Assembly: GCA_937991645.1 (NCBI GenBank)
Contig: CALKPL010000037.1
Span: forward strand, 9,168 to 73,167
Direction of reading: 5' to 3'
Length of the DNA stretch: 64,000 nucleotides
Origin: an uncultured Clostridia bacterium
Lineage (GTDB): Bacteria > Bacillota > Clostridia > Oscillospirales > UMGS1783
Shown: positions 31,581-61,306 of the stretch, piece after piece
Layout: every line of letters starts with the position of its first letter
Numbering within the stretch: the first letter of the stretch is position 1
Translations under genes and position numbers: made by a program
The notes under the pieces: model-generated
Database searches by the model: none
Told to the model about the DNA's origin: nothing
Seen by the model: only the letters and a program-made list of their open reading frames with translations

Positions 31581-31585
31581 TCAAT

Positions 31586-32557: not shown

Positions 32558-32595
32558 TCGTTTACATGTCTCCTTTCCGAAAAAGAGGTGTATTT

Positions 32596-41026: not shown

Positions 41027-41027
41027 T

Positions 41028-41228
41028 ATGCAGGTAACGATAGATCGTTTTGAAGAAGGGATCGCCGTTGTGCAGACGCCGGACGGCGGGGTGTACCGGC
41101 TGGACCGCGCCCTCGTCCCTCCGGAGGCGCGCGAGGGCGATGTGCTTGTGATCGGGCTGGATCCGGACGCGACGCAGGCGCGACGCAGGTTTATGGAGCG
41201 GCGGATGAAGGACGTTTGGGCGGACTGA
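41028..41228 (+). CDS. DUF3006 family protein
   Basis: 66 aa: MQVTIDRFEEGIAVVQTPDGGVYRLDRALVPPEAREGDVL. Usual partner of ComEC-like MBL genes. Confidence 0.7.
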   Translation: MQVTIDRFEEGIAVVQTPDGGVYRLDRALVPPEAREGDVLVIGLDPDATQARRRFMERRMKDVWAD

Positions 41229-41351
41229 GCCTTGCGGTCGCGGTTTTACGCCGGCGCGCTGCCGAATAAAATCGGTAAGGTCCTGCAAAAGGCTTGACAG
41301 AATTGTAAATCATGCGTATAATATAATGCGTGCCTTCAATATGGCGCGTTT

Positions 41352-41429
41352 CGGGGTGTAGCTCAGTTTGGTATGAGTGCTTGGTTCGGGACCAAGAGGC
41401 CGTGAGTTCGAGTCTCACCACTCCGACCA
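41352..41429 (+). tRNA. tRNA-Pro (anticodon CGG)
   Basis: The cloverleaf folds by hand. Acceptor CGGGGTG/CACTCCG, D stem GCTC/GAGT, and anticodon stem CTTGG/CCAAG with loop TTCGGGA. T arm GTGAG-TTCGAGT-CTCAC, discriminator A, and an encoded CCA. Confidence 0.9.
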
Positions 41430-41434
41430 CGAAA

Positions 41435-41475
41435 TGCGGTAGTCCATGATACAATGGGCTACCGCACTTTTTTAT
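41435..41475 (+). terminator. rho-independent terminator after tRNA-Pro
   Basis: TGCGGTAG..CCAT / ATGG..CTACCGCA stem followed by CTTTTTTATTT. Confidence 0.7.
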
Positions 41476-41773
41476 TTATCTGCCGAGAAAGTCCTTATAT
41501 CAAGCGATTTTCCGAGTGTGGGGGTGCAAAAGTCCTCAATGCTCGGATTTTTCTATTTTACCGGAAGCGAGCTGCTGATTTTTGCTTTGCACCCCCTTAT
41601 GGGAAAAATCAAAAAGTAGATAGGTTTATCAAAAGGTTGCAGAGAAAAATCAAATTGTTCCTTGACATTTATTTGCTACGCTTTTCCTCTTCCCCAGGGA
41701 GAGTCAATGTTCCTGCTGACTTTGATACAATAGAAAAAGCCTTCTCCGGGGTCAAAACCGCCGAAAAGGCATA

Positions 41774-41820
41774 AAACAAGGGCTTTCGAGGTCAAATACT
41801 GACTTCGAAAGCCCTTGTTT
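41774..41820. terminator. long bidirectional hairpin terminating the defence operon
   Basis: 21-bp stem AAACAAGGGCTTTCGAGGTCA / TGACTTCGAAAGCCCTTGTTT with one G-U pair and loop AATAC. T-rich on both sides. Confidence 0.7.
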
Positions 41821-41950
41821 GCTTTATTCAGTTGTGGATTTCTGCCATTCCAAAGCCTGACGGCACCGTAGGGTGTAAGTCTTGCGGTGTATGGATTTTG
41901 GAATAATTAAAAGGTATGGCATAATTAAAAGGTTTAGCGCCTTTTTTCGT

Positions 41951-42136
41951 TTATTCCTTATTGTCGGTGCCCTCTACATAATCGGCCAGGCAAGCCTCCA
42001 GAAGCATTCTTGTGACGTCTGTGTAAGCAAGGATTTTTCCCTGGGCATACATATCATCGTCTTTTGCGTCCTTCAGCTTCGTCATTTCGGTATCGATTTG
42101 AGCCTTGATAAACTTAATAACATCAATTTTTTCCAT
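41951..42136 (-). CDS. 61-aa acidic hypothetical protein, last gene of the defence operon
   Basis: ATG 42136 lies 5 nt after the stop of the 511-aa gene. The GGAGGA RBS sits inside that gene's last codons. No recognisable motif. Confidence 0.5.
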   Translation of the reverse strand: MEKIDVIKFIKAQIDTEMTKLKDAKDDDMYAQGKILAYTDVTRMLLEACLADYVEGTDNKE

Positions 42137-42141
42137 TGCAA

Positions 42142-43677
42142 TTATTCCTCCGGCGGGTCAAAATCTTCATCCGTGCATTTGCGGATAATATGCTTAGTGC
42201 GGTCAAGCGGCAGAGGCACGTCCTCCTCTGCGAAATACTCCACCTTCACTACCGCTGCTGCGGAGTGGTGGTTATCCTTGCCCACGGGTACAATCACATA
42301 ATCGCCAACGGAAATATCGTCCTCATCGGCAATGTAATAATAACTTTTGTAGCCTTCGTCAAATTCCACGCTACAGTAGATATAATCGGTTCTGCGGCGC
42401 TTGACCTTCTCATAGACCGCAGGATTGAGTATTTCCCCCATTCCGTAGAAACGCATAAACTGCCATACGGATTCAGCAAAATCGCTCCAGAGCTCCGGAA
42501 GAGCCTTCTTGTCATATGTTCCTTGGATGACACGCTGCGGTCCTTTCTTGAAGTCCACTGTGATCGTGTAATCTATGGTTTCAAGCGGATTGTCTACCGC
42601 ATCATCCGGGTTGCCCTCAATCTCGCCAAACAGGTCATCGGCATCAATATCATTGAGCAGGCCTTCAACGCCACCCTGGACATAGTATTTTCTGGACACA
42701 GCACAACCGCTGCCGATGTTCTGAATATGCTCCAAGGTCTCACTTTTACGGTCAAGCACCAATCTCTCGGTGTAGTCCCAAGTCACATATTCAACGGTTT
42801 CGGAGATCGGCTGCTTCGGCTTCATTTTGGTAATGCGGTGATAATCGATGGTGACGCGGTCAACTCTGTCTGGCTTGTTATTGCCGTCAAACACATAAAG
42901 GTCATCCATTTCGACTGCTTCTCGCACCATATCCGACAGGTCAACGCCATCCACTTCAAAATCAGCAATCAACGAGCCACGGTACTTATAAATATCTCCC
43001 TCGGTGTTGGTGATCTCCATCTCCCATTCACCGATATCGGTAGCAAAAACCTCAATGTACTCAGTGCTGAAATATCGTGCTATGCTGTTCAGCACTTTTG
43101 TGGCGCTTTCCTTTTCAATTTTATAAATTTTGCTCCTGGACTTTTCATGTCCATCAAAGCCAGAGCCAAAGTTGTATGCTGAGAACCATATGCGCCCATC
43201 GGCGTTGATGGTGATATGCTGTTCAACCTCGTCATCTGGTTCAGGCGGTGGGCCATAGCAGATATTATTGGAAACGATGCGCACCTTCTGCGGAGTGCCT
43301 TTAAACCGCTTCATGTGACATTCTGCTAATTCGCCCAGGCGGGATAGAGCCATCGTAAACCACGCACGGTTCTTCAGCTCCAAAATTTCCTCACCAGAAT
43401 ATGCCCAATGATTGAAATACCGCCATCGGGAGTAAATAGCCGATCCGAGCAAAGGAATATCAGTTATCTCCCCGATGATGCGTTCCAGTGCCTCAAAATC
43501 GTTTGCAGCTTTGCCGTACTTCTCAGAAAAGGCATGACCGCAGTCCATTACGAACCCAAGTGCCTCACAGTCATCAGCCATATAATGGTCTACCAGTTCA
43601 ATGTAGGTGGTTTTCTTATTTCTGAATTTGTCATACCACTTGACTGCAAATTCGTGGATTTGCTTCATGTCCGCCAC
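42142..43677 (-). CDS. 511-aa hypothetical protein, no recognisable domain
   Basis: Long ORF whose codon usage matches its neighbours. GTG start 7 nt after GGGAGGTG. No Walker, HEXXH or nuclease motifs and no TM helices were seen by eye. Confidence 0.7.
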   Translation of the reverse strand: MADMKQIHEFAVKWYDKFRNKKTTYIELVDHYMADDCEALGFVMDCGHAFSEKYGKAANDFEALERIIGEITDIPLLGSAIYSRWRYFNHWAYSGEEILELKNRAWFTMALSRLGELAECHMKRFKGTPQKVRIVSNNICYGPPPEPDDEVEQHITINADGRIWFSAYNFGSGFDGHEKSRSKIYKIEKESATKVLNSIARYFSTEYIEVFATDIGEWEMEITNTEGDIYKYRGSLIADFEVDGVDLSDMVREAVEMDDLYVFDGNNKPDRVDRVTIDYHRITKMKPKQPISETVEYVTWDYTERLVLDRKSETLEHIQNIGSGCAVSRKYYVQGGVEGLLNDIDADDLFGEIEGNPDDAVDNPLETIDYTITVDFKKGPQRVIQGTYDKKALPELWSDFAESVWQFMRFYGMGEILNPAVYEKVKRRRTDYIYCSVEFDEGYKSYYYIADEDDISVGDYVIVPVGKDNHHSAAAVVKVEYFAEEDVPLPLDRTKHIIRKCTDEDFDPPEE

Positions 43678-43720
43678 TGCAGTACACCTCCCATCATTTT
43701 ATAAAGTTGACCGTTCTTTT

Positions 43721-45034
43721 TTAACAGAATGCGCTCATAAACTCTTGTTCCGAAACTTTCATCATTGAGACAAATCCAGCATAATCAGTAGCGTCCATGG
43801 GTATTTTCAATCCGTGCTTGGTTATGCTGATATCTTCCCGTGGGATAACATTCGCCTCATAGGTAGAGCCGCGATTCATTCGCAATCTCAGACCCTCGGA
43901 GTTTTCTGCTTCGGGATAGAGATAATAACCCGTTTGAGCATCGAAGCGGAACATATAGGCAAGTACCTGCAGATAGTCCCGGTTGCCGATATTATCGATT
44001 GGTTTATATTTTGCATCAGCAATCACTCGCTTTTCGCTGTTACGGCTGATGAAATCAGGGTAAATAAGACCCACATTTCCTTCGAAGAGTCTCTGTGCGC
44101 CTTTTCCGCCTTTATTCATTGGGTGGTAGAACACGTCATCAATGAGAGAATTGATGTACTCCTCCCAAAGCCATGCACCGTCAAACAGGATGCCGTATAT
44201 TTGTCTTGTTCCTGTACCGATTTGGTGCTTTTGGTGCCGCAGAATAAGCAGGCACAGTCTCTGCAATGCATGGTACTCTCGGTAATACGCATGGCGGACG
44301 GTATTCTTTTTGTTCTGTTCAATGATTTTCTGCCTGTTATACGGCTCATATCCCGGAGTCGCATCTATAACGAGTTTTACCTCGTCTTTCACTTTGGTAA
44401 GAAGTTTATTTCCGTAAGGCTTTCTTTTGATAAACTCTATGGTATGCCGCACCAGCTCCATCAGACTATTATCGTAGGAAAACTCTCTCTGGCTGTATGC
44501 AACATTTCCTACAAATGGGGTATTCTCCTCGATATGTCTTGCGACATCAATCGTGCCTTTTACATTTCCATCATTGTACCTACGGCGGATATATTTTTTG
44601 AACAACCCCTTCCGCATAGCTGCCTTGAGGTAATACGGAAACAGAAACAGCAGAAAATTGAACAGCCGATTGTCTTGATTGGCATCGGAGTTCAAATCTA
44701 CGATGTTTGGAAAGTCCAGGACTTTATCTAAAAGATACTGGAAAAAGTAATCCTCACCCTCTCCGCAAAAACGGGACGCGATCACAAGCCGCTCATCACC
44801 ATAGCCGAGAAAACCCATCACATTGCCAGAACGAAAGGTGTCATTGATGCTTTGGAGGATCATCTGATCTTGGGTAATATCCTCTGCATCTTTTACGGTT
44901 TCTGGAAATACGAATACACCTTCACGCTCAAGCTGTTCCAACGTTTTATCTGCAATTTTACCTGCCAGCTTCGCTACTTGAGAAAAGGCATCTTTTTTCT
45001 GTTGGGAGTTATCCTTGATCCTGAGTAGCTTCAT
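43721..45034 (-). CDS. mcrC: McrC-like type IV restriction endonuclease subunit
   Basis: PD-(D/E)xK signature LIYPDFISRNSEKRVIADAKYK. Immediately downstream of mcrB and overlapping it. Start is ambiguous (45034, 45040 or 45079). Confidence 0.85.
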   Translation of the reverse strand: MKLLRIKDNSQQKKDAFSQVAKLAGKIADKTLEQLEREGVFVFPETVKDAEDITQDQMILQSINDTFRSGNVMGFLGYGDERLVIASRFCGEGEDYFFQYLLDKVLDFPNIVDLNSDANQDNRLFNFLLFLFPYYLKAAMRKGLFKKYIRRRYNDGNVKGTIDVARHIEENTPFVGNVAYSQREFSYDNSLMELVRHTIEFIKRKPYGNKLLTKVKDEVKLVIDATPGYEPYNRQKIIEQNKKNTVRHAYYREYHALQRLCLLILRHQKHQIGTGTRQIYGILFDGAWLWEEYINSLIDDVFYHPMNKGGKGAQRLFEGNVGLIYPDFISRNSEKRVIADAKYKPIDNIGNRDYLQVLAYMFRFDAQTGYYLYPEAENSEGLRLRMNRGSTYEANVIPREDISITKHGLKIPMDATDYAGFVSMMKVSEQEFMSAFC

Positions 45035-47105
45035 GTACATCACCTCTGGACTGTCGCTGATAGCCATATGCCTTTGCAAACCGTTTCATAATCCCTTCCT
45101 CATCGTACATACCCTGAATGTATTCCTGGAGGAGCGGTTGCAGATAATCCGTCCAAAGCTGGTCAAAGTCCAGTGTTTTCAGCTTCAGGAAGTAAGAAGC
45201 ACCGATTTGATAATTCTCATTCAAATCCTCAACGGCAGCAATTTCCTTGTTAAGGGCAGCCATTCTTCTGATTGCTTCAGCCTCCAACTCCTCGTTTTCC
45301 AGCAAGGCCAGCATCTCAAGGCGTTCGTCTGCCCGAAGCTCCACAAAGCGGAAACGACGGCGCATAGCAAAATCGAAGCTATCCACAGAACGGTCAATAT
45401 CATTCATCGTGCCGATGATATAGACGTTTTCGGGAATGTAGAACTTTTCATCCGGGTTGGGGTGCAGATTGGAATACTGCGTAGATATCTCACCGGATCT
45501 TCCACGATAACCAGGGTCGATGGCAAAGAACAGTTCACCGAAGATTTTAGATATTTCACCACGGTTAATCTCATCGATGATGAAAATGAATTTTTTCAAT
45601 TCGGTCTGTTTTGCATGAATCTTGGAACCGGTAGCTTTTCTCGCCTTGATGGCTTTGTAGATAGCGAAGTCGTAGGAGTATGCCTGCGTTGCGAAGGACT
45701 TTCCGAAGAAGGACGTGATGTCCTTGATTTTCTCGAACCGAAGACCGGACTCCAACATTCTCCGAACCTCATCAAGATTTAGTGCGAGTTTGTTAACCGT
45801 TGCATTGCCAGGGATAGAGATATTAATGTGGCTGTCATCTACGCTTACGATGGTAAATTCATTGCCATTGATGGTTTTGAAGGAATCAACGCCCAATTCC
45901 AGGCTGGCGAAAAATTCTGCCATTGCTTCCTGAACTGAGAGTTCCTTTTCGACCGTTTCTTTGGATTTCTGTGAATCCTCGTAGTTCTTTCTGGCGCGAG
46001 TAACAAACTTTTTGAAAATGCCGTCCTGCAGTTCAAAACCCATAGTACCGTCATCGTTGACCCTCGGTCTCAAACCTTCAACAAAATCAGAGTAATCGTA
46101 GCTCGGATGGAACTGGACGAATTCCACCTGTCTCTTCTGCTCATCTGTCAGCAGGGTGTAATCGTCAAAATATCCGTTGCTGATAATATCCGCAGCGATT
46201 TCCTTTGCAAGGTAAGACTTGCCAGTACCCGGAGCGCCTCTGAAGATCAGATTTTTAGATTCAATCAGCATAGAGGAGAACGGATTCCTGTATCCTTTGA
46301 ACTGCTGAACCAATTCCTCTTGGGCAGCGGCTTCTGCCTCCTCGACAACAGTTTCTTTTTCATCTTTTTCTCGGTATGTCAGTACAAACTGGTCTCCCGG
46401 TTCACCGAACCGCTTCAAGCATTCCTGAACGAAACTAATTGTGGAGAAGATATTCCAACAGTAAATGACGAACTGACGGCCGTTGTCATAACCGTAGGTC
46501 ATGTATTCTATGGTCTTGCGGTGCTTTTTGTATTCATCGACACTTGCAAAGATGCCGCAAATCATCTCACTGTCCGGGTTGTATTTGCATACAGGAAAAC
46601 TCTCCTTATCCTCAACAGACAAAGATGCAATCTGCTTTTCAAAAACCTGGCAGGCGATGCGAGGCAGGGTCTGATTGGAATTTCTTCTCTCACCCTTGCT
46701 GTAGGCGCGCTTGATCACCTCGCCAGTTGCCTTTTTGAAGGAGACATCAAGGGGCTTATAGTTGTCACCTAGGCTGATATTATCCATCGTGAACCGCTCG
46801 TCTGTAGATACCACACTTTCGGCGGTGATGGACAGTTCGAACTTTTCCTGCTGCTTTGTCTCAATAGTAAAGCCCTGGCCTTCCAGAAAGCTTTTTGCTT
46901 CTACGGCATTAAAGCCGTCCGTAGAAATATTTGTTCCGTTTGCCAAATAGTCAGCAACAGCCACTACATATTTCGGTGGATACCGCTTTCCGTCATCGGT
47001 TACAAGTTCGTATTTTGTGCTTTGATTATGAAAAGGGACACCATTCTCATCGATGTATTTTAAGGCATCCATGACGTATTCCTTTTTGAATTTTGGTATA
47101 GCCAT
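45009..47105 (-). CDS. mcrB: McrB-like AAA+ GTPase with about 290 aa of N-terminal putative DNA-recognition region
   Basis: Walker A FRGAPGTGKSYLAKEIA, Walker B FIFIIDEINRGEISKIFGELF, and the McrB signature IIGTMNDIDRS. The N-terminus contains GKRYPPKYVVAVA. Confidence 0.9.
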   Translation of the reverse strand: MAIPKFKKEYVMDALKYIDENGVPFHNQSTKYELVTDDGKRYPPKYVVAVADYLANGTNISTDGFNAVEAKSFLEGQGFTIETKQQEKFELSITAESVVSTDERFTMDNISLGDNYKPLDVSFKKATGEVIKRAYSKGERRNSNQTLPRIACQVFEKQIASLSVEDKESFPVCKYNPDSEMICGIFASVDEYKKHRKTIEYMTYGYDNGRQFVIYCWNIFSTISFVQECLKRFGEPGDQFVLTYREKDEKETVVEEAEAAAQEELVQQFKGYRNPFSSMLIESKNLIFRGAPGTGKSYLAKEIAADIISNGYFDDYTLLTDEQKRQVEFVQFHPSYDYSDFVEGLRPRVNDDGTMGFELQDGIFKKFVTRARKNYEDSQKSKETVEKELSVQEAMAEFFASLELGVDSFKTINGNEFTIVSVDDSHINISIPGNATVNKLALNLDEVRRMLESGLRFEKIKDITSFFGKSFATQAYSYDFAIYKAIKARKATGSKIHAKQTELKKFIFIIDEINRGEISKIFGELFFAIDPGYRGRSGEISTQYSNLHPNPDEKFYIPENVYIIGTMNDIDRSVDSFDFAMRRRFRFVELRADERLEMLALLENEELEAEAIRRMAALNKEIAAVEDLNENYQIGASYFLKLKTLDFDQLWTDYLQPLLQEYIQGMYDEEGIMKRFAKAYGYQRQSRGDVHEATQDQG

Positions 47106-47132
47106 ACTGATCCTCCAATATTATTTTCATTT

Positions 47133-48635
47133 TTACAGCCTTTGCTTTGTGCCGAGAGGGGGAACGCCAATCTCGGTTAAAAACGCATTGCAGGTTTCAA
47201 TGTCCTGCTGATAAAAACCTGTGAACAGGTACTTATAAGCCTCTTGTTCTTTGTCGCCATCAACAAAGGTCATTCCACCGAGCCTCAACACCTCTTGCAT
47301 CTCTTGTAGATCCAATCCCAAACCAACTCCCATTGCTATCAGCGGGCGCATCGTAAATTTGTGCGTTTCGCCCTGTACGCGGGAGAAGTTCATTTTGTCC
47401 AACCCCGTTTTGCTTTCAAATGTATACTCGTACCAGTTCTCTTCGGCCATGCGTTTTTTCATCCATGCTGCGGGAGTAGTAGCAGTGGCCTGTGCGCGCT
47501 TTAGTTTTTTCTCAAAATCCTTCGCCTTATTGAATAGTTCCGTATTCTGCGTATTCGCATCATAGGCGGATTCTGTGTTAAAAACACTATCAGATCGGAA
47601 CATCATTTGAGAGGCTCCGTGCATCAAGCTGTCAGGAATCAGCTTGATAGAGAAATCAAGTGTACATTCAGCAAGATGCTCTTTTGCATAAGGCGTCATT
47701 GATTTGACGCCATTTCCAGCATCAAACAAATAACGGTCATCATTCAGAACGAAATATCCCTCGGAAAAGCAGAATACGCCTGTATCTAATGTCGCACGTA
47801 ACAAATCATTTTCACGATACAGCTTAAACGCATCGAGCGGTGAAATGGGGCGTTGATGCCGTTTCGCTTGCGTCGCCTTACGATGCTGAATTTGACTCGC
47901 AGGAGCGTTGGATTCACCCGCACAATATGCCTCAGCTTCACCATATCCCAATTCATACATTCGTATGGCAGCTGACTGTCGGGACACTTCAAAAAAATCT
48001 GCTACATTGTCGATTACATATTCAGTTACGATGCTACGGTCTGCGTTTGGATTATCTGCAAGAAGCACCTGGTAAATATGGTCGACCTTTTTCTTGAATG
48101 CGGTTCGTGGCATGAGTATTTTGGGTGCAATTGTTTTTGCCTGCCACTCCATTTTATCAATATCAGACCACTGTCCACCGATCAAGCTCCCGGTAGTTGA
48201 AATTCCTCTGTTACAGCGGAATGCAAACTCTGTCCCATTTTCATGGTTTCGCTTGTAATTAAAGTAATTCCGATGCCGCCACCAATGGAAGCATTCATGA
48301 GCCAAAGTATTATTGAACCGTCCGATATTCATGATATCTGCATCAACGAAAATCGAAGGTTGTGACACCTCATATCCGATGGTTTCTTCGGCAGACCAGT
48401 CATACACTTCAATGATGCCCTTCGTAAATGCGATGGCACCTTGAACACTACCATCGAATGACAAATACTCCGTATCAATGATTTCCAGAGACATAAGCCT
48501 TGTGGCAATATCCCGGATCGGTATGGGTCTGGGATTGTCTATGGCATCAGCGCATTCGTATTTTGTCAGAAATGCCTCGGCTTCTTTTTCATAATCAGCC
48601 ACATAATGCATAAATGGGTTTGCAGCCTTTGCCAT
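47133..48635 (-). CDS. ImmA/IrrE-type (Peptidase_M78/DUF955) zinc metallopeptidase with a long uncharacterised C-terminal region
   Basis: HEXXH motif in NNTLAHECFHWWRH. About 350 further residues end in an Xre-HTH-like segment (RPLIAMGVGLGLDLQEMQEVLRLGGMTF). ATG 48635 follows AGGAGG, 18 nt after the hsdR stop. Confidence 0.75.
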   Translation of the reverse strand: MAKAANPFMHYVADYEKEAEAFLTKYECADAIDNPRPIPIRDIATRLMSLEIIDTEYLSFDGSVQGAIAFTKGIIEVYDWSAEETIGYEVSQPSIFVDADIMNIGRFNNTLAHECFHWWRHRNYFNYKRNHENGTEFAFRCNRGISTTGSLIGGQWSDIDKMEWQAKTIAPKILMPRTAFKKKVDHIYQVLLADNPNADRSIVTEYVIDNVADFFEVSRQSAAIRMYELGYGEAEAYCAGESNAPASQIQHRKATQAKRHQRPISPLDAFKLYRENDLLRATLDTGVFCFSEGYFVLNDDRYLFDAGNGVKSMTPYAKEHLAECTLDFSIKLIPDSLMHGASQMMFRSDSVFNTESAYDANTQNTELFNKAKDFEKKLKRAQATATTPAAWMKKRMAEENWYEYTFESKTGLDKMNFSRVQGETHKFTMRPLIAMGVGLGLDLQEMQEVLRLGGMTFVDGDKEQEAYKYLFTGFYQQDIETCNAFLTEIGVPPLGTKQRL

Positions 48636-48653
48636 AGACAGCCTCCTAACCAA

Positions 48654-51650
48654 TTAGTCTGTTTGCGTTCCTTCGCGCAGGATTCGATAGATTTCTGTCA
48701 TAAAGACATTTGCAAATTTCGCACGAATTTCCTCGTTATTGAGGAGTAGCGTATAGAAATCCGCATTCTGGTCATAACCTTCAACCAATGCGTCCTGGAC
48801 ACAGTCGTCATAGGTGAACTTGAACTCGTTGAGGGTGTTGTTTTTTGCACTCTTTTCAAGACGCTCTTTGAGTGCAGCGTTCTTCAAAAGTAGGTCACGA
48901 ATCTGCATGGCGGCTTTCGTAGTGAAATCCGGCTCGTAGTCCTTATCGTACAGGGCGTTAACCTCATCGATAATCTGGGAGAGGAGCTTTTTCTGTTCCT
49001 CCTCAAGACTTGCAGGCTTCGGTTTCTTGATTTTCACTTCAGGCTTGGCTTCGATTTCCTCGCCCTGGTGCTTTTCCAGCTGCTTCTGTCTGAAATCGCT
49101 GACGGTAATTTTATCAGCAATATCAAAGTTGTTTCCACCACCACCGGGGTTCAATTCCTTAATCAAATAAGAAAGGAAATTGTATCGCTTATGGAATTCG
49201 AGGTTTTCATAGGCGGTAGCCTGGATAAGGAAACAATAGCCTTTCAGGAATCGGCGGATGGTAATCTTGATCTCCATCTGCTCCAATTCGGGGCGTTTGG
49301 TAATTTTCTTCAAAGCCCCATCCAATAACGACCACATACGCTGCTTGTCCCGTGCTGTGCGGTTATCCTTGTAGAGGTATGTATTGAATTCATCAACATC
49401 GTCCGCATCAAGGAAGTCATACGCATCAATTTCACGATCCATGTCACGAATATCGGACGGAGAAATTGTTTCAAAAAGGATGGTGTCTTTGTAATACGGC
49501 TCAAATGCCGCTTTGATATCATCGTAGCTGTTTTTAAAGTCCAACACAAAGGTAGTCTTATCGTAAGGCGGACAAATTCTGTTCAGTCGAGAGAGGGTCT
49601 GGACGGCCTGAACTCCACGCAGGCGCTTGTCCACATACATTGCCACCAGTCTCGGCTGGTCAAAGCCAGTCTGATACTTATCTGCAACGATAAGCACTTG
49701 ATAACAACTGCGGTCAAACTCGTAACGCAGGTCTTCCTCTTTGAAACCGTTCATGCCGGTTTCAGTGTATTCCTTGTCGTCCAGTTTGACCTTGCCAGAG
49801 AATGCCACCAGAGCCTGAATGCCCGTATAGCCACGCGCCTGAATATACCGTTCAAATTCCTGGCGGTATTTTACAGCAGCCGGGCGAGAAGAAGTGATAA
49901 CCATAGCCTTTGCCTTACCACCAAGGCACCCGGCCACATTTGCTCTGAAATGCTCAATGATGATTTCGACCTTCTGTGCGATGTTGGTATCATGCAGGTC
50001 GATAAAGCGAGCCATCTTACGCTTTGCGGCGATAGACTGGAGTTCCGGGTCATCCTGGATTGCCTTATTGATATGGCAGTAAGTTTTCCAGGTCACATAG
50101 TTGTCCAAAACATTAAGGATATAGCCCTCCTCAATGGCTTGCTTCATAGAATACAGATCGAAGGATTCCTTCTTACCTTCAGCGTTCAGAGTGCCGAAAA
50201 GCTGAAGGGTATCCGGCTTCGGTGTAGCAGTAAAGGCAATCATAGAAACATTGCTCTGCTTGCCACTCTTCTGGATTTCCTCAAGCATCTTGTCTTCTTC
50301 AGTCTTTTCCTCCTCGTCCTCCTCATTGGCGAGGACATTGGTTACGGACTGCATATAGACACCCTCAGTAGAAGAATGTGCCTCGTCAATCAGTACAGCA
50401 AACTTCTTGCCCTTAAGGTTTCCGAGCAGATTGTTGTTGAGAATGTAATAGAATTTATGAATGGTGGTAACAACGATCTTAGTGTTGCCGCCGAGTGCGA
50501 TAGCCAGGTCCTCGGAATCGCACCTATCATCCATAACCTTGACCTGTCCGCTTTTGTGCTCGATGCCGAGAATGGCCTCTTGCAGCTGACGGTCAACAAT
50601 GATACGGTCAGTGATAATCAGCACCGTATCAAAAATATTTTCATTGGCGGCATCGTGAACCGTCGCGAGAATGTGAGCAAGCCAGGAAATGGTTTCGGTC
50701 TTGCCGCTGCCCGCAGAATGTTCAATAAGGTAATTGCAGGAGGTGTGGTTCTCGATAACATCGTTCATAACCCGCTCAACAGCACGAAGCTGATGGAAAC
50801 GTGGGAAAATGAGCACCTTGGACTTTTTGATTTTGCCGGTATCAGCATCCTTGCGCTCTTTCTTTTTGATATAGATGAAACGCTCGATGAGGAACAGGAT
50901 TTTATCCTTCGTCCAGATGTTCTCCCACATATAGGAGACGTTCACGCCGTTCTGATTGTGGGGATTTCCCTTGCCGAAGTTTTCACCAATGTTGAACGGA
51001 TTGAAGAAGGTATCGGGGCCCTTCAGTTCCGTGGTGAAATACACTTCATTCAGGTCCATGGCAAACGCAGCAAATACGCCAACCCTGCTCTTGAAAAGGC
51101 GGGTGGAAGGATCGCGCTCATTCTTGTACTGCTTAATGGCGTCCTCGTAGCTTTGACCGGAGGTGTTGCATTTCAGTTCAACTGTGAAGATAGCCAAGCC
51201 ATTCAGAAAAATAACGAGGTCAATGCGTTCGTCAGCCTTGTGATATACCTCTTCCATTACGGAGAAGATATTTTTTCGGTAGTTCGCAACAGCCTGGGTG
51301 TTGATGGTGCTGTCCGGCTTGCGATACATCAGCCGAAGGGTAACACCATTATCGAACTCTACGCCGTGCTTGATAACATCGATCAGGCCACGGCTTTCCT
51401 TGTTGATTTCCGAGTTGATGTAATTAATGACCGTATCGTTGGTGCGGTCTTTATACATACGGCGCAGACGCTCCATTTCATCGTGCTGCGTATCCTCCAG
51501 AAACTCAAGCAGGACTTCGGTATCCATTGCCAACCCAGGCTTATAGGCTGTGTTGGGACGGATACGGAATTTGTTATCCTCTTCCAAACGCTCCAGAATC
51601 AACTTTTGGAAATCTTCTTTTTCTCTCAGCTGGTCTGCTCTGATAGGCAT
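48654..51650 (-). CDS. hsdR: type I restriction enzyme R subunit
   Basis: 998 aa. Helicase motif I HSAGSGKTETISW, motif II VLIDEAHSS, and later motifs VAFSGK and QTGFDQP. Confidence 0.95.
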   Translation of the reverse strand: MPIRADQLREKEDFQKLILERLEEDNKFRIRPNTAYKPGLAMDTEVLLEFLEDTQHDEMERLRRMYKDRTNDTVINYINSEINKESRGLIDVIKHGVEFDNGVTLRLMYRKPDSTINTQAVANYRKNIFSVMEEVYHKADERIDLVIFLNGLAIFTVELKCNTSGQSYEDAIKQYKNERDPSTRLFKSRVGVFAAFAMDLNEVYFTTELKGPDTFFNPFNIGENFGKGNPHNQNGVNVSYMWENIWTKDKILFLIERFIYIKKKERKDADTGKIKKSKVLIFPRFHQLRAVERVMNDVIENHTSCNYLIEHSAGSGKTETISWLAHILATVHDAANENIFDTVLIITDRIIVDRQLQEAILGIEHKSGQVKVMDDRCDSEDLAIALGGNTKIVVTTIHKFYYILNNNLLGNLKGKKFAVLIDEAHSSTEGVYMQSVTNVLANEEDEEEKTEEDKMLEEIQKSGKQSNVSMIAFTATPKPDTLQLFGTLNAEGKKESFDLYSMKQAIEEGYILNVLDNYVTWKTYCHINKAIQDDPELQSIAAKRKMARFIDLHDTNIAQKVEIIIEHFRANVAGCLGGKAKAMVITSSRPAAVKYRQEFERYIQARGYTGIQALVAFSGKVKLDDKEYTETGMNGFKEEDLRYEFDRSCYQVLIVADKYQTGFDQPRLVAMYVDKRLRGVQAVQTLSRLNRICPPYDKTTFVLDFKNSYDDIKAAFEPYYKDTILFETISPSDIRDMDREIDAYDFLDADDVDEFNTYLYKDNRTARDKQRMWSLLDGALKKITKRPELEQMEIKITIRRFLKGYCFLIQATAYENLEFHKRYNFLSYLIKELNPGGGGNNFDIADKITVSDFRQKQLEKHQGEEIEAKPEVKIKKPKPASLEEEQKKLLSQIIDEVNALYDKDYEPDFTTKAAMQIRDLLLKNAALKERLEKSAKNNTLNEFKFTYDDCVQDALVEGYDQNADFYTLLLNNEEIRAKFANVFMTEIYRILREGTQTD

Positions 51651-51651
51651 A

Positions 51652-52983
51652 TTACCGAACCTCCTTTACTCGTTTTTTGCCTGTGACATACTCAAATATT
51701 ACGGCAGCCATATGATTTTGCATGGTAAGCAGCTGACGCTCCTTTTCCGCAATAGTTGCATCAATAAGTGCCGTTTTATAGTCCAGCTCTGCTACTATAG
51801 CATCTTGCTCTTCTAACGGAGGAACAGAGATATTCTGTTTCTTCAAAATGCTGAACGGAGGGATATTTTTTATAGCACTACCGTTGCTATATTTTTCATT
51901 CATATATTCCAGTGCAACATCGAATAAGTAAATAAAATAAGATTTATTGAACCCATCTTTTATTCTTACCCTCATCAATGCCTGATTGATAATACCCGGC
52001 TCAATGTTGTCTGGTAGAACATAACACTTACCAATAGTGCCTGCGCAACTCACTATTATGTCGCCAGGAGCAACAGAAAAGTCCTTAAGTCCTCTATAAT
52101 CTTCGTAGGATAGATAATACCACCCCAGCGAAGCATCGCCCTGAATTGCATTCTTTTGCTCATAGACCTTAAAGGTGTTTTCACCCTTTTCTATAAACAT
52201 ATCGACAGTTACAGCACTTCCAAAGGGACCTTTTTTGTAAGTTGCGATATCCTGCATACGAAGGATTTCCCAATGTTCGGGAGTCGCTCCGCACCACTCT
52301 ATATGGCTATTCTTTTTCTGCACATCGGGGTTCAAACCGTGTGTAACAACTTCTGAAATATAAGTTTTTTTATATTTTTTCAGCAATGCAAGTTGTGCTT
52401 CCAGTTCAGTGATGATAGCCTGCAACTTTCCGCAATGAACATCCAAATAGTCTGCAATGGCTTCCTGTTCGGCATAATCTGGAAACGCATACAAAAATTC
52501 CGCAAAATCTCCTTGGTACAGATGCACAATTGTACTGTTGCCAGCATTTTTGTAGTTAAACCAGTTCCAAAACTCATCGGATTTAATCACCCAATAGAGA
52601 AACCGCTGGCTATATCCTTCGATAGGTACAATACGAAGAACGCCGCTATTAAGTGATGTTTCACCCGGCATATTCGTTACAATAGCAACCTTACCAATAG
52701 TACCGTCTTTGGTAATCAACAGATCGCCTTCCTGAATTTGAATATCCGTAGCTTCTTCCCAACGCTTCATAGGAACATGAACACAATTTTCCCAATCAAT
52801 ACCACCGTCAGCAAAATCAACTCCGGTGATAAGATATGCGCCCTCGTCCTGGTACTCTTCGGATGTCAATCCTTGCCATCCAATGCGTCCCTTCAACGTT
52901 GCCATATATTTAATTCGCTTGGTGTTCCAGGCAGTTGGAATTTCTCCAATCCACTGGATGCCAGTCTGTCTCATCTCTTCCAT
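51652..52983 (-). CDS. hsdS: type I R-M specificity subunit
   Basis: 443 aa with two target-recognition domains separated by coiled-coil conserved regions (LEAQLALLKKYKKTYISEV ... EKERQLLTMQNHMAAVIFEYVTG). Confidence 0.9.
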   Translation of the reverse strand: MEEMRQTGIQWIGEIPTAWNTKRIKYMATLKGRIGWQGLTSEEYQDEGAYLITGVDFADGGIDWENCVHVPMKRWEEATDIQIQEGDLLITKDGTIGKVAIVTNMPGETSLNSGVLRIVPIEGYSQRFLYWVIKSDEFWNWFNYKNAGNSTIVHLYQGDFAEFLYAFPDYAEQEAIADYLDVHCGKLQAIITELEAQLALLKKYKKTYISEVVTHGLNPDVQKKNSHIEWCGATPEHWEILRMQDIATYKKGPFGSAVTVDMFIEKGENTFKVYEQKNAIQGDASLGWYYLSYEDYRGLKDFSVAPGDIIVSCAGTIGKCYVLPDNIEPGIINQALMRVRIKDGFNKSYFIYLFDVALEYMNEKYSNGSAIKNIPPFSILKKQNISVPPLEEQDAIVAELDYKTALIDATIAEKERQLLTMQNHMAAVIFEYVTGKKRVKEVR

Positions 52984-55145
52984 TATTCTGCCCCTTTCTG
53001 CAAGGCAGCAATTTTTGCAGTAAGCGAAGACTCCAATTCCATGAATTGCGCCAGCAGATCATCAGCCTTTTCGGGCTCATGGTACACATAGAAATACCTG
53101 GTGAACGGGAATTCCGCACCCAATTTCTCTTTATTGGTAGCACTCTCCGCTTTGCTTTCGTCAAAGTCATAGAAGTAAATCGCATCCGGAATATGCGGAT
53201 ACACTTCAGCATCCATATAAGCCTTCTCGTCCTGATTGAGGCGAATAATTTCCGTGTCTTTTGTTGTCGGGTCGATAATCACACGGCCTTTTCTGTCCTT
53301 CTGGACAACAGCGGTCTTGTCAATAAACGACAGTTCCATGGCAATGCCGTTGAGACGAGAATCCGACATACCCTCAATACCTGCGAGAGCCTTTTTCAGT
53401 ACTGCTACGAATTTGGAAAAATCATCGTATTCCTTGTCAGACTCCTGCGCCTTCAACGCCTCAATTACAGCAGCAGTAAAGGTGCGACCCTTAATCTGCT
53501 TCTGATATGCCTTTTCGTCAGTAGCGTCACGAGGATCGGTCTGCTCCAATTCCTCAAATTTAGCTTCATTGAAAATGTTGGTATTGGCGGTGAAATAAGC
53601 GCTGGTACGAAGTGCCTCAATAGAAGCCGCATTGATAACACCACGGCGCTGTAAGGGCTGGTACACAGACCACTCCTTATACAGGAATTCCTCTCGGTCA
53701 AAAATCTTGCTCTCAATAACGCATTCGTGCTTGCGCTTTTCGCACCACTGAGTCTTTCTACCAGGTGCAAAATCCGCATAGATCTCAGTGATAAGGGTAA
53801 TCTGCTCCTTGGAGATTTCTCTACGCTTTTTGCCAAGAGAACGCTTCAGAGGAGTCCACATATCGGTTGCATCGATAAGCTGAACCTTGCCCTTGCGTTC
53901 TTTACGCTTGCCCTTGGACAAAATGAACGCATAGATTGCAATATCGGTATTGTAGAACAACTGAGAAGGCAGACCGATAATGGCTTCTATAAGATCATTC
54001 TCAAGCAGGTATCTTCTAATCTGGCTTTCACCACTTGTGGTATTGCCGGAAAACAGAGGAGAACCATTTGTGATAATAGCAGCTCTACCAACGCCTTTCT
54101 GCATTTTTGCAACGGCGTGCTGCATAAACAGCAATTGCATATCACCGGTTGTAGGCAATCCCGCCGGGAACCTGCCATTATTGCCTTTCTTGTATTCTTT
54201 GCGCACCGCTTTTTCAACACCATCGCCGGCATCTTTGCCGCCCCAAGCCTCACCAAAAGGTGGGTTGGCAATGACAAAACGCATGGAGGTATCTTCAAAG
54301 CAGTCCTCCTTCATGGTGTCAGCAAAGCGGATGTTTTCTGCAGTCTGGTTCTTAATCAGCATATCCGCAAGGCAGATAGCATGGGATTCAGGGCTGTTCT
54401 CCTGTCCGAACAGGCGCACATTGGCGTCCGGGTTCATACGCACGATGAAATCGTGTGCGGTAGAAAGCATACCGCCAGTACCGCAGGCCATGTCCAATAC
54501 GGTGATTTCTCTGCCTTCGGAGAAAATATCACTGCAACCTTCAGCAAGCAGAATGCTGGTGAGGAGGCGGATAACTTCACGAGGGGTGTAGTGATCGCCC
54601 GCAGACGCATTTTCAGAAAAGCGGCGGATGATTTCCTCGAACATATAGCCCATCTTGACATTATCGACTTTTTCGGGGTCGAGTTCGAGTTCAGAGAACT
54701 TTTTGACAACACCCAACAGTCGGTTATTTTTGTCGAGATTTTTGATTTCTTCCTTAAACTTCAGTTCTTCAAAAATTGCTTGGACATTCGGAGAGAAGGA
54801 CTCAATGTAAAAAGTCAGATTCTCTACGATGGCAGGTGCTTCGGTAAGCAGTTTCTTCAAATCAAATTCACAGGTATTGTAGAACTGATAGCCAGATTTT
54901 TTGCACAGCAACTGTGCAGGAGCCGCGGGGTTCTTCTTGAATGCGTCAACCACAGCCTTCTTTTTAGGCGCAAGAGCACACTCCAACCGGCGCAGGATAA
55001 TCATGGGAATGATGACATCCTTGTACTTGTCCGGCTTATAAGGACCACGCAGCGTATTTGCAATGGAGAATACCATGGCGATTTCTTTGGACGCATCTAT
55101 CGTTTTGTCGTCCATCATTACTTCGGTGATTTTTGTCTGTGCCAT
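52983..55145 (-). CDS. hsdM: type I R-M N6-adenine DNA methyltransferase subunit (long form, 720 aa)
   Basis: HsdM N-domain, SAM motif LDMACGTGGML and catalytic motif FVIANPPFG. About 230 aa of C-terminal extension. Confidence 0.95.
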   Translation of the reverse strand: MAQTKITEVMMDDKTIDASKEIAMVFSIANTLRGPYKPDKYKDVIIPMIILRRLECALAPKKKAVVDAFKKNPAAPAQLLCKKSGYQFYNTCEFDLKKLLTEAPAIVENLTFYIESFSPNVQAIFEELKFKEEIKNLDKNNRLLGVVKKFSELELDPEKVDNVKMGYMFEEIIRRFSENASAGDHYTPREVIRLLTSILLAEGCSDIFSEGREITVLDMACGTGGMLSTAHDFIVRMNPDANVRLFGQENSPESHAICLADMLIKNQTAENIRFADTMKEDCFEDTSMRFVIANPPFGEAWGGKDAGDGVEKAVRKEYKKGNNGRFPAGLPTTGDMQLLFMQHAVAKMQKGVGRAAIITNGSPLFSGNTTSGESQIRRYLLENDLIEAIIGLPSQLFYNTDIAIYAFILSKGKRKERKGKVQLIDATDMWTPLKRSLGKKRREISKEQITLITEIYADFAPGRKTQWCEKRKHECVIESKIFDREEFLYKEWSVYQPLQRRGVINAASIEALRTSAYFTANTNIFNEAKFEELEQTDPRDATDEKAYQKQIKGRTFTAAVIEALKAQESDKEYDDFSKFVAVLKKALAGIEGMSDSRLNGIAMELSFIDKTAVVQKDRKGRVIIDPTTKDTEIIRLNQDEKAYMDAEVYPHIPDAIYFYDFDESKAESATNKEKLGAEFPFTRYFYVYHEPEKADDLLAQFMELESSLTAKIAALQKGAE

Positions 55146-55162
55146 TACATCGTTCCTCCAAA

Positions 55163-55372
55163 TTAATATTCATTCAGGTCGATACCGGCCTTCAGCAAAC
55201 GCTCATAGCGGTCATTGGAAATGATAACCGCCATAGGCTTACCGTTTTTCAAGACAAAACCAGCCTTATCTTCGGTAGATATTGTCGTTATAATCTTTGA
55301 TGCCTGCCCACGCAGGAAGTCTGACATATTATAATGCTCCATCGGAGTGATACTTTTCTTTACCTCAGCCAT
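55163..55372 (-). CDS. Phd/YefM-like antitoxin-fold protein, first gene of the operon, no toxin partner
   Basis: 69 aa: MSDFLRGQASKIITTIS...GFVLKNGKPMAVIISNDRYERL, matching the Phd/YefM N-terminal pattern. hsdM starts 17 nt downstream. Confidence 0.6.
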   Translation of the reverse strand: MAEVKKSITPMEHYNMSDFLRGQASKIITTISTEDKAGFVLKNGKPMAVIISNDRYERLLKAGIDLNEY

Positions 55373-55404
55373 GATTTGCCTCCTTGTAATTCATGCTATT
55401 TTAC

Positions 55405-55433
55405 ATCATAGCACAAAGTAATTACTTTTTCAA
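55405..55433 (-). promoter_or_regulatory. near-consensus sigma-A promoter of the defence operon
   Basis: Minus strand: TTGAAA (55433-55428), 17-nt spacer, extended -10 TGCTATGAT (-10 hexamer at 55410-55405). Confidence 0.6.
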
Positions 55434-55495
55434 TGACTTTTGTGTAACTTTTTGTTTGTACAATTCAGGCTACCTCAACAAACACAAAAAAGTTA

Positions 55496-55512
55496 GTAAC
55501 TCACCGAGTTAC
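55496..55512. promoter_or_regulatory. perfect 7-3-7 palindrome GTAACTC-ACC-GAGTTAC
   Basis: Read directly from the sequence. Other GTAAC(T) copies lie at about 55445, 55604 and 55662. Confidence 0.4.
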
Positions 55513-55538
55513 GATTAGAGGCACATATTAACCTTCAT

Positions 55539-55594
55539 CCCTGTCCACAGCCTTTCCAAAACATCGGAAAGGTACTGTTGGCAGGGATTTTTTG
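55539..55594 (+). terminator. compound hairpin with T-tract, no upstream plus-strand gene
   Basis: CCCTG...CCTTTCC-AAAACATC-GGAAAGG...CAGGG followed by ATTTTTTG. Confidence 0.5.
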
Positions 55595-55802
55595 CTTATT
55601 CACTGTAACTCGCCAAGATTCGGGTTTTCAGACATTGTTAGATATAATTTTGGTATCGAAGGTAACTCCTTCGAAATAAATTTTACTCCGCTTTGTGAGT
55701 GGCCATTAACGAAGCGGTGGATACATACGGAACCCGGGACGGATTCTCCGTCAGCCATCCGATGTACCACCGTTGATTCGTCATGCCTTCTCACGAGCGT
55801 CG

Positions 55803-55838
55803 AAGCCGGTGTGTCATCTGATGCACCGGCTTTTGTTG
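55803..55838 (+). terminator. terminator/attenuator 40 nt upstream of the sigma-like gene
   Basis: AAGCCGGTG-12 nt-CACCGGCTT followed by TTGTTG. The 150 nt before it contain several further hairpins. Confidence 0.6.
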
Positions 55839-55878
55839 TATCTGCCGCCTCCCTTCCCAAAGCGGGAAAGGACAAGCA

Positions 55879-56388
55879 ATGCAAAAGAATGACAATCAGC
55901 ACTACATCTATCTGCGTTCCACCCGTGAGCGCATCCCCTGCACAGAGCAGGAGTTCCACGATTATTACCGCGACATTGATGCCTTCCGCAAAAAGCAACA
56001 GCGCCACGGGCGCTGCGTGTGTCCCGTCGCCAAGCGACTGGACTGTGACATGGACTGCGTGACTTGCCCCTTCAGCAGAGCCGGAGACTCCCTCTCCTTG
56101 GATTACACCGCTACAAACGACGAGGGTGAAGAAAGACCCTGGCTTGACGATATACCAGATGCATTCGCAGAGGTCGATGTGAAAGTTGAGGAAGCTGAGA
56201 TGCTCGATGCGCTGCATCTTCTTCTATCAACCCTCGCACCGGAGGAACTGGAAATTTGTAAAACCATCATGGTCGATCTTTCCGAGCGTGCTGCTGCCGC
56301 ATCACTAAACATCTCCCGAAAGGCCTTTACGTGCCGCAGAGATAAGGTTTTGAATCATTTGAAAAATTCTCTAAAAAATTATCTCTGA
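55879..56388 (+). CDS. sigma-70 region-4-like HTH protein with an N-terminal Cys cluster (phage/ICE early regulator type)
   Basis: 169 aa. CVCPVAKRLDCDMDCVTCPF, then LLLSTLAPEELEICKTIMVDLSERAAAASLNISRKAFTCRRDKVLNHLK. Confidence 0.6.
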   Translation: MQKNDNQHYIYLRSTRERIPCTEQEFHDYYRDIDAFRKKQQRHGRCVCPVAKRLDCDMDCVTCPFSRAGDSLSLDYTATNDEGEERPWLDDIPDAFAEVDVKVEEAEMLDALHLLLSTLAPEELEICKTIMVDLSERAAAASLNISRKAFTCRRDKVLNHLKNSLKNYL

Positions 56389-56471
56389 TTTGGGGGCCAA
56401 ACGGCAATCCCGTGTCCGGTGGCAAGTGTAAGAGGCAAAACGATACCGCCGATTATGGGAGGTGACAAAGA

Positions 56472-58054: not shown

Positions 58055-58055
58055 T

Positions 58056-58631: not shown

Positions 58632-58645
58632 GGAGGTAACCGAAT

Positions 58646-58861: not shown

Positions 58862-58929
58862 AACGCAATACCCCGTGGGCGGCGGAGCGATCTGCCGCCC
58901 TATTGGGGTAAGCGAAAGGACCGGTGAAT

Positions 58930-60870: not shown

Positions 60871-60883
60871 CGAGGTATAACCC

Positions 60884-61303: not shown

Positions 61304-61306
61304 ACC

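Follow-up and report, generated by a model that had tools for sequence, protein, structure and literature searches.

A modular restriction cassette with an M78-HTH peptidase gene, probable cargo of a gut Clostridia prophage

RESULTS

We analyzed a 64,000-nucleotide stretch of DNA from an uncultured Clostridia bacterium (assembly GCA_937991645.1, contig CALKPL010000037.1, positions 9,168 to 73,167), referred to below as the window. It contains an array of nine open reading frames (ORFs), all on the minus strand at 55372-41951, which encode a type I restriction-modification (R-M) system, an M78 peptidase with a helix-turn-helix (HTH) domain, McrBC, and three further proteins. We found that the first five genes recur as a core beside phage genes, that the position behind them holds different genes in different relatives, and that the peptidase belongs to a family whose genes stand directly after the restriction (R) gene of several kinds of restriction system. 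The best overall explanation, which we favor with modest confidence, is that the array is modular defense cargo of a Heliusvirales-type prophage with an autoregulated core, a protease-regulator, and a variable slot.

Adjacent type I and type IV systems (PMC12707154), prophage-borne defense, and protease-plus-HTH regulators of immune operons are already known. What appears to be new is that these parts are joined at the level of an operon on a widespread gut prophage, that type IV nucleases are exchanged at a defined slot, and that an uncharacterized M78-HTH family is linked to R genes from several types of restriction system. The prophage lineage is very widespread in the human gut, and its exchange slot for complete restriction cassettes and for type IV nucleases is relevant to phage-phage exclusion and to gut gene flow.

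A five-gene core and the position behind it

The array begins with g1 (55163-55372), which encodes a basic protein of 69 amino acids (aa), a putative autorepressor heading the cassette. It continues with hsdM (52983-55145; 720 aa), a type I N6-methyladenine methyltransferase of a long-C-terminus family; hsdS (51652-52983; 443 aa), a specificity subunit with two target-recognition domains; hsdR (48654-51650; 998 aa), the type I restriction subunit; and the peptidase gene (47133-48635; 500 aa from the ATG), whose product joins an M78 domain, a middle domain, and an Xre-type HTH. Behind these lie mcrB (45009-47105; 698 aa) for the AAA+ GTPase subunit, mcrC (43721-45034; 437 aa from the ATG) for the nuclease subunit, a gene with a GTG start for a very acidic 511-aa protein of no known family (42142-43677), and an acidic, element-specific 61-aa ORF (41951-42136).

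From a scan of species-representative genomes we obtained 80 peptidase-family loci and searched them by tblastn with the window proteins. The five-gene core, g1-hsdM-hsdS-hsdR-peptidase, was present in about 19 species-level loci. The same order was found in relatives whose peptidases are 58, 53, 48, and 47% identical to that of the window, beside the same kind of phage module. Among the core loci, identity to the window copy is 77 to 93% for HsdR, 73 to 89% for HsdM, 70 to 90% for g1, and 45 to 70% for the peptidase. McrBC, the 511-aa gene, and the 61-aa gene were found in only one of the core loci, a locus of the same element. In the other relatives, the peptidase gene is followed by Mrr-type nucleases (loci L023, L036, L044, and L045), GIY-YIG/DUF4357 proteins (L027 and L034), DUF3791/DUF3990 (L025), helicase and NERD genes (L039), or nothing recognizable (L029, L032, L038, and L046). 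The order of type I R-M, peptidase, and type IV nuclease recurs with non-homologous McrBC, Mrr, GmrSD, and GIY-YIG/DUF4357 enzymes, and it stands behind two unrelated type I families. As judged from gene order, these comparisons show the position after the peptidase to be an exchange slot, filled here by McrBC.

The pairing of neighboring type I and type IV systems is well known from the immigration control region of Escherichia coli (hsdRMS, mrr, mcrBC), and, as in the loci described here, several type I families are paired there with distinct type IV families (PMC12707154). The E. coli region is a chromosomal hotspot of separately transcribed systems without a peptidase; in contrast, the window genes are translationally joined on a prophage, with the M78-HTH gene at the junction. 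One viral contig (L135, 1433-9518) has an hsdR 53% identical to that of the window, followed by EVE-McrB, McrC, and the 511-aa gene, and contains no peptidase gene.

The nine genes are probably read as one unit. Read from the sequence, the junctions from g1 to the 61-aa gene measure 17, -1, 1, 18, 27, -26, 43, and 5 nucleotides (nt), the mcrB/mcrC overlap being 26 nt. Ribosome-binding sites were read at seven starts, those outside the tightly coupled hsdS and hsdR starts; six have a GGAGG-type site (g1, hsdM, the peptidase gene, mcrB, the 511-aa gene, and the 61-aa gene), and GAGGTG precedes the mcrC start. A predicted promoter at 55433-55405 consists of TTGAAA, a 17-nt spacer, and the extended -10 element TGcTATGAT (10/12 matches plus TG). 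It is the top minus-strand match within 41000-56500, and the internal minus-strand matches all score 9/12. Promoter-like sites numbered 26, compared with 24.4 +/- 5.2 in shuffled sequences, so that the internal ones are at chance level. One of these weak sites, TTAAAA-17-TAAAAT, lies at 43724-43696 in the gap between mcrC and the 511-aa gene (9/12). At the far end, a terminator hairpin at 41774-41820 with 21-nt arms, 95% complementary, would serve both the array and a convergent recombinase fragment. Every intergenic gap inside the block is too short to hold an internal terminator, and the intragenic terminator-like matches are weak. The layout, junctions, near-consensus promoter, and 21-bp bidirectional terminator described in an initial annotation of this DNA all held up, and our search for strong internal promoters or terminators that would split the block returned only the 9/12 sites and weak matches just described.

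That annotation went further and read all nine genes as one hard-wired, layered, co-regulated system; taken to full interdependence, type I restriction, the peptidase, McrBC, and the 511-aa and 61-aa proteins would all require one another. The tight junctions, the single strong promoter, and the terminator speak for such interdependence, as do a nine-gene order that is identical in many metagenomes and the recurrence of a type IV nuclease after the peptidase. The nine-gene copies give no independent evidence, however, because they are all near-identical copies of one element, and the same nine-gene order was found nowhere else. Behind the core, relatives have different tails or no tail. Members of the 511-aa family also follow GmrSD, LlaJI-type, and DpnII cassettes, and the distant ones stand alone; the 61-aa gene has no homologs elsewhere. 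We therefore consider full interdependence of the nine genes very improbable. The narrower claim, that the pairing of a type I system with a modification-dependent nuclease goes beyond chance neighborhood, is borne out by the recurrence of this order with non-homologous type IV enzymes. The three uncharacterized genes of that annotation fared differently when we looked for them beside R-M or McrBC genes elsewhere: the peptidase gene does co-occur with them, the 511-aa gene does so in its close relatives and not in its distant ones, and the 61-aa gene has no homologs to compare.

The prophage setting

The array lies at one end of a prophage. Divergent from it, on the plus strand at 55879-63583, is a phage early/replication module encoding phrog_13787, a DUF2800 exonuclease, an Enc34-type single-stranded-DNA-binding protein, a family A polymerase, DUF7768, and a D5-type primase-helicase. 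This module has about 85 to 90% nucleotide identity to the Oscillospiraceae phages NatCom_11393 and NatCom_21982 of Ca. Heliusvirales, a proposed phage order (PMC11283538). The 511-aa gene is similar to the same extent; the hsd, peptidase, and mcrBC genes lie outside this similarity. In the equivalent position, those two phages have a different large system, such as an R-M cassette of the LlaJI type. The predicted affiliation of the prophage with Ca. Heliusvirales is based on the genes of the replication module, as the structural genes and TerL fall outside the window.

On the other side of the array, the prophage ends at a tRNA-Pro(CGG) gene (41352-41429, plus strand), with its boundary at about 41421-41426 in the 3' end of that gene. 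Homology between differently inserted copies ends at 41401-41426, inside this 3' end. The operon and the phage module are identical in eight long contigs, and the flank beyond the 61-aa gene is different each time. Next to the tRNA gene is a 3' fragment of a large serine recombinase gene (41454-41774, plus strand), which is 100% identical to residues 425 to 530 of an intact 530-aa recombinase in another locus (L015, 16862-18454). Because the flanks differ, the boundary falls at tRNA-Pro, and a recombinase fragment and a phage module are present, we conclude that an integrated prophage carries the block as cargo at one of its ends, and its status as modular prophage cargo is very probable. The initial annotation had considered neither this status beside an attachment site nor g1 as the likely autoregulator. 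A search of a plasmid collection gave no match to the block.

Integration apparently splits the recombinase frame, which would place the attachment site inside the integrase gene. The C-terminal residues of the recombinase ORF are odd for a protein, and the true stop codon may lie earlier.

Phage lambda rexAB and the prophage-mediated defense systems of mycobacteriophages are operons expressed in lysogeny. As in those phages, the defense genes of the window lie by the regulatory region and the attachment site of a temperate phage. In contrast to both, the window cargo comprises a complete type I R-M system together with McrBC.

The peptidase family and its restriction partners

The M78 domain of the peptidase spans residues ~1 to 240 and contains H113-E-C-F-H117. 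A mixed alpha/beta middle domain follows, and the Xre-type HTH is at residues ~403 to 470. The protein has a weak match to Peptidase_M78 (PF06114, 1.6e-6) and matches PADLOC capP (1e-10) and phrog_4031, a PHROGs family without a functional annotation (4.7e-69). In a Foldseek search with the AlphaFold2 model (pLDDT 84), the N terminus matched CapP (7t5t, 1e-4, the best match in the PDB), IrrE (3dti), and a mycobacterial HTH-peptidase regulator. The best structural matches of the HTH were R-M controller proteins, with a target-normalized TM-score of 0.71 for C.Esp1396I. In the family alignment, HExxH (H113-E114-x-x-H117) is invariant, and HEC[FVY]HW, MEWQA..APKILMP, and the HTH are kept in every restriction context. 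NCBIfam holds no curated model for this family. We found no description of an R-M-associated M78, ImmA, or YgjP peptidase in a literature search that most subscription journals lay outside, and a long review of R-M biology says nothing of peptidases. In a public-assembly collection, 849 indexed blocks contain the exact peptidase sequence.

To define the gene neighborhood, we counted as informative the 40 full-length family members with at least 4.5 kb of upstream sequence. The peptidase gene lies directly after an R gene in 38 of these 40 loci. The R gene is hsdR in 32 of them, drawn from two hsdR families that are only 22% identical to each other, and type III res in the other 6. In group B (about 22 loci), the unit of 500 aa carries a fused YgjP-like metallopeptidase domain (PF01863, 1.7e-53) and stands directly after hsdR of the second family, followed by Mrr, GmrSD, McrBC, DUF4357 proteins, or RhuM. 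In Streptococcus, all 8 of 8 loci have the peptidase unit directly after res of a type III system. LlaJI-type cassettes contain a further member, encoded by their 630-aa gene (L001, 8089-9981). In every context examined, the family loci are on, or adjoin, prophage or conjugative-element genes. The link between the peptidase and R-M that the initial annotation had drawn from one locus is upheld across these loci, and the peptidase and the R-M cassette are, in our judgment, likely to be functional partners.

Two neighboring genes deserve mention. The 630-aa LlaJI gene adjoins a gene for a 266-aa protein (L001, 7274-8074) that resembles only the C-terminal half of the peptidase family; it appears to be a paralogue without the peptidase part, and it could be a substrate or partner. 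One Streptococcus type III cassette with a peptidase gene (L090, 3801-5245) adjoins a gene for an FtsK/TraG-like ATPase, judged from its Walker A motif, which suggests an integrative conjugative element (ICE). A 610-aa gene that precedes a distant relative of the 511-aa gene was tried as a family member and rejected (hhalign probability, 1%).

ImmA-type proteases are known to control the induction of phages and ICEs. The g1 protein and the peptidase could instead form the lysis-lysogeny switch of the prophage, as ImmR and ImmA do, with the R-M and McrBC genes as passengers in an immunity operon. This would fit an operon divergent from the early replication genes, as an immunity operon is, and in other phages (L074 and L077) a replication module of this kind is accompanied by short M78-only relatives. 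Against it, full-length members follow an R gene at nearly all of the informative loci and never come directly after the head gene. In addition, tblastn found no family member in a Heliusvirales phage with different cargo (L014), and the family also follows a type III system by conjugation-type genes in Streptococcus. We regard a lysogeny switch as quite improbable.

The peptidase is also set apart from the known systems that it resembles. It has in common with CapP/CapH, IrrE/DdrO, and ImmA/ImmR the M78 fold with HExxH, an Xre-type HTH, and an association with immune operons. In those systems the repressor is a separate protein; here the HTH is on the C terminus of the peptidase, fused in cis, and the operon contains no separate Xre-type repressor gene. 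Unlike capP, which is divergently upstream and belongs to CBASS (cyclic-oligonucleotide-based antiphage signaling), the window gene is internal to the operon, directly after hsdR, and is linked to R-M. It differs likewise from R-M controller (C) proteins, small stand-alone HTH proteins with C-boxes whose genes lie shortly before the restriction gene; only the HTH fold is similar, and here it forms part of a 500-aa protein whose gene follows hsdR. Stand-alone YgjP-like (DUF45) genes commonly adjoin hsdR, although our literature search gave nothing relevant on them; the group B unit carries such a domain as a fusion, and the window protein has none.

The promoter and its candidate regulator

We aligned 16 distinct upstream regions of the core cassette and found that both promoter hexamers are kept across them. 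A putative operator palindrome, AAGTAATTACTT (55416-55427), lies inside the promoter spacer. Its core, GTAATTAC (55418-55425), is near-invariant across the 16 diverged promoters, and the flanking bases vary. About 65 nt upstream of the -35 hexamer is a putative second operator (55496-55512), the inverted repeat GTAACTC-N3-GAGTTAC, of which a partial second copy is found 109 nt away at 55605-55622. The arms of this repeat co-vary symmetrically in relatives (TAACTT/AAGTTA and TATCTT/AAGATA). We considered the 55496-55512 repeat as a terminator and rejected this, because it lies between divergent genes, ahead of the promoter, and no minus-strand gene is found upstream of it.

The conserved palindromes and hexamers have the appearance of an autoregulated promoter, and g1 would be the obvious candidate to bind there. 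The g1 protein is weakly Phd/YefM-like. It matched PF02604 with E = 1.8e-4 (21.6 bits, against a cutoff of 29.8), TIGR01552 with a score of 15.3 (cutoff, 20.8), a Phd structure in the PDB with E = 0.56, and the antitoxin family phrog_2268 with 9e-5. No toxin gene (Doc, YoeB, or similar) follows g1 directly; the next gene is hsdM. By tblastn, g1 is 70 to 90% identical across all group A cassettes. LlaJI cassettes begin with a gene that is annotated as HTH_17 in Pfam, and group B cassettes begin with a 64-aa ORF that looks HTH_17-like by eye, from the sequence alone.

A small repressor, RptR, is encoded at the head of type I R-M defense islands in Gammaproteobacteria (PMC12255303). Like RptR, g1 is a first-gene protein of roughly 70 to 80 aa in a type I R-M island, with promoter repeats as candidate binding sites. 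RptR (79 aa) is helical and bZIP-like and binds TAGCTA; in contrast, g1 is Phd/YefM-like at best, its candidate site is GTAATTAC, and the two have no sequence relationship.

Possible action of the peptidase

The characterized M78 relatives all cleave HTH repressors (10.64898/2026.05.16.725639; for IrrE, PMC7213743), and CapP-type peptidases are activated by single-stranded DNA (10.64898/2026.05.16.725639). By analogy, we tentatively propose that the peptidase of the window acts by cleaving a repressor. According to this model, the core module (g1, hsdM, hsdS, hsdR, and the M78-HTH peptidase gene) would be expressed from the one promoter with the spacer palindrome, and the modules would be joined translationally, between the attachment-site end and the divergent replication genes. 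g1 would bind the GTAATTAC palindrome and repress the operon. A signal, for example single-stranded DNA arising from DNA damage or infection, would switch on the metallopeptidase, which would then cleave a DNA-binding repressor (its own HTH module or g1) and reset expression of the restriction genes. McrBC in the slot would add an attack on modified DNA that escapes or mimics type I methylation. Such control would be important where a mobile element brings its R-M system into one unmethylated host after another.

Several points weigh against this model. The single transcript is predicted from the sequence, and the weak 9/12 site at 43724-43696 means that the tail of the array may also have its own transcription. 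The Phd/YefM match of g1, at 21.6 of the 29.8 bits required, is below threshold and identifies its fold only weakly. Binding by g1 and cleavage by the peptidase are likewise predictions. The head genes differ in fold, being Phd/YefM-like in one group and HTH_17-type in others, so that the head protein is unlikely to be a universal substrate of the peptidase. Regulators are usually encoded at the head of an operon and not directly after the R gene, and given this fixed position a partner of the R protein would fit at least as well. Finally, the type I relative without a peptidase gene on the viral contig described above indicates that the peptidase is dispensable for this family of type I enzymes.

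The fixed position after R favors the main rival. According to this alternative, which we consider possible though doubtful, M78-HTH is a restriction-alleviation protease that is activated by self-restriction damage and degrades or disables HsdR, Res, or the LlaJI R protein. It would let a phage- or ICE-borne R-M system establish itself in an unmethylated host, as a self-contained counterpart of the ClpXP-dependent alleviation of EcoKI. Consistently with this, the peptidase gene is immediately 3' of the R gene across four kinds of nucleoside triphosphate-dependent restriction system, always in the mobile contexts noted above. The activation of CapP-type peptidases by single-stranded DNA also fits, proteolysis of HsdR is a known route in E. 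coli (PMC4231737), and the peptidase diverges faster (45 to 70% identity) than its partner HsdR (77 to 93%). However, helicase-nucleases are not known as targets of any characterized M78, ImmA, or IrrE peptidase, and the conserved C-terminal HTH would be left without an obvious role. In our reading of these comparisons, the fixed position after R and the mobile context favor alleviation, and the homology to repressor proteases and the conserved HTH favor a regulator. A wider proposal, which we think rather unlikely, would make the M78-HTH family a dedicated, hitherto unrecognized partner of mobile type I, type III, and LlaJI-type enzymes that senses damage from self-restriction or infection, then degrades R or resets transcription, and that may couple to the adjacent type IV nuclease.

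To our knowledge, how mobile R-M systems avoid killing naive hosts is understood only for a few E. coli type I enzymes (ClpXP). A protease/DNA-binding gene fixed behind R in four kinds of restriction system is a concrete candidate for establishment control. If this is true, the M78-HTH family would give phage- and ICE-borne R-M systems a built-in switch for establishment or alleviation.

The 511-aa and 61-aa proteins

The 511-aa protein has a net charge of -37, spread across all its domains, and a pI of 4.7. Its model is confident (pLDDT 92.5) and has a helical N-terminal domain (residues 1 to 120), beta-rich repeats, and a small C-terminal barrel. The barrel resembles the 3' DNA-binding domain of PriA and also occurs as a stand-alone small protein in many phages; the repeats have a weak, local PUR/SsgA-like resemblance. 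The strong acidity argues against nucleic-acid binding. We found no family for the protein in Pfam, NCBIfam, PADLOC, or PHROGs, no sequence match of its family profile in the PDB, and no significant match of the full-length fold in the PDB or BFVD. The family itself is large: 811 matches were obtained initially, clustering at 50% identity gave 2,238 representatives, and many members are without the N-terminal 120 residues. Fusions to a C-terminal Macro or GNAT acetyltransferase domain occur in P0013 (691 aa) and P0204 (658 aa). With more than 2,000 clusters, a confident model, and no known fold, the family is a clean target for structural and genetic work.

We sampled the contexts of 31 family loci and, for close homologs, examined 23 viral contigs. 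The gene upstream of the 511-aa homolog in these 23 contigs was GmrSD in 11, a LlaJI-type cassette ending in a peptidase-family gene in 5, and unknown genes in 3; EVE-McrB/McrC, DpnII R-M, a UmuC-like gene, and McrC (the window element itself) were found once each. The homologs in viral contigs are mostly near contig ends. More distant relatives, at 33 to 48% identity, stand away from restriction genes; their neighbors are a SIR2 gene, a hemerythrin gene, phage genes without known function, or ordinary chromosomal genes. The 511-aa gene thus appears self-contained and, as an association only, tends to come last behind the restriction cassettes that prophages carry at their ends.

These contexts bear on an alternative in which the 511-aa protein is the key unknown of the array and the rest is ordinary: it would inhibit or guard the type IV nuclease, protecting the methylated DNA of the phage, or would sense anti-restriction proteins. 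In 17 of the 23 viral loci, the gene comes directly after GmrSD or McrBC or ends a LlaJI-type cassette, and the net charge of -37 across all domains also speaks for it. In addition, a C5-cytosine methyltransferase gene is present in most Heliusvirales (PMC11283538) and would bring them into conflict with a resident McrBC. Still, the protein has no catalytic motif and no significant full-length fold match, its distant relatives are not by restriction genes, and an inhibitor always co-transcribed with its target would cancel that target. A central role of this kind is, in our judgment, improbable.

For the 61-aa protein, we found no family in Pfam, NCBIfam, PADLOC, or PHROGs, and tblastn matched only copies of the window element. 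We rejected it as a conserved partner of the 511-aa protein, as the genes downstream of 511-aa homologs encode proteins of 61, 180, and 201 aa that are mutually unrelated.

Remaining features of the array

The initial assignments to type I R-M, M78 peptidase, McrB, and McrC agree with the matches that we found in Pfam, PADLOC, and NCBIfam. HsdM matched PF02384 (N6_Mtase, 1.2e-56) and PF12161 (HsdM_N, 1.9e-21), and its translation contains the NPPFG motif. It aligns over residues 17 to 715 with the PADLOC MTase_I model PDLC03029 (661 positions; 2.9e-218), and its homologs are 714 to 728 aa long. The long C terminus that had been remarked on is therefore real, but it is a property of the whole subfamily and not unusual. 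HsdS has PF01420 (Methylase_S) in two stretches and matched PADLOC Specificity_I (2.3e-82). HsdR has HSDR_N, SWI2_SNF2, ResIII, and T1R_D3 domains in Pfam and matched TIGR00348 at 1.1e-54, which is under the curated cutoff; a D...ELK nuclease motif and a DEAH box are present in its translation. With HsdM, HsdS, and HsdR all recognized, the predicted gene content is that of a type I system. Membership in MADS was rejected, the matches to mad2, mad5, and mad8 being weak and far under the curated cutoffs.

The hsdS gene varies (443, 439, or 418 aa; compared loci L018, L019, and L031) where the rest of the operon is 99 to 100% identical, and the hsdS of L031 is 55% identical. This variation suggests swapping of target-recognition domains, which would shift specificity within one phage lineage.

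McrB matched AAA_5 (1.5e-12) and the NCBIfam McrB model (3.6e-39, under the equivalog cutoff), and its translation contains the Walker A motif GAPGTGKS and MNDIDRS...RRRF. We found no Pfam family and no PDB sequence match for residues 1 to 270, and thus no known reader domain for modified cytosine. An insertion of about 170 residues (~320 to 490) splits the AAA+ domain between Walker A and the remainder. McrC matched PF10117 (3.5e-51).

The block was also said to be more AT-rich than both its flanks, and the GC content agrees: 0.42 to 0.48 in the block, 0.49 to 0.56 immediately to the left, about 0.6 further left, and 0.53 to 0.56 in the phage module on the right. Local GC dips (0.50 to 0.53) occur at 16001-18000 and 31001-33000, within the ~0.6-GC chromosome left of the prophage. 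An Rfam scan of 41000-56600 returned the tRNA only. At 41899-41934, in the stretch that leads from the 61-aa gene to the terminator, an 18-nt sequence is directly repeated in tandem (TGGAATAATTAAAAGGTA / TGGCATAATTAAAAGGTT).

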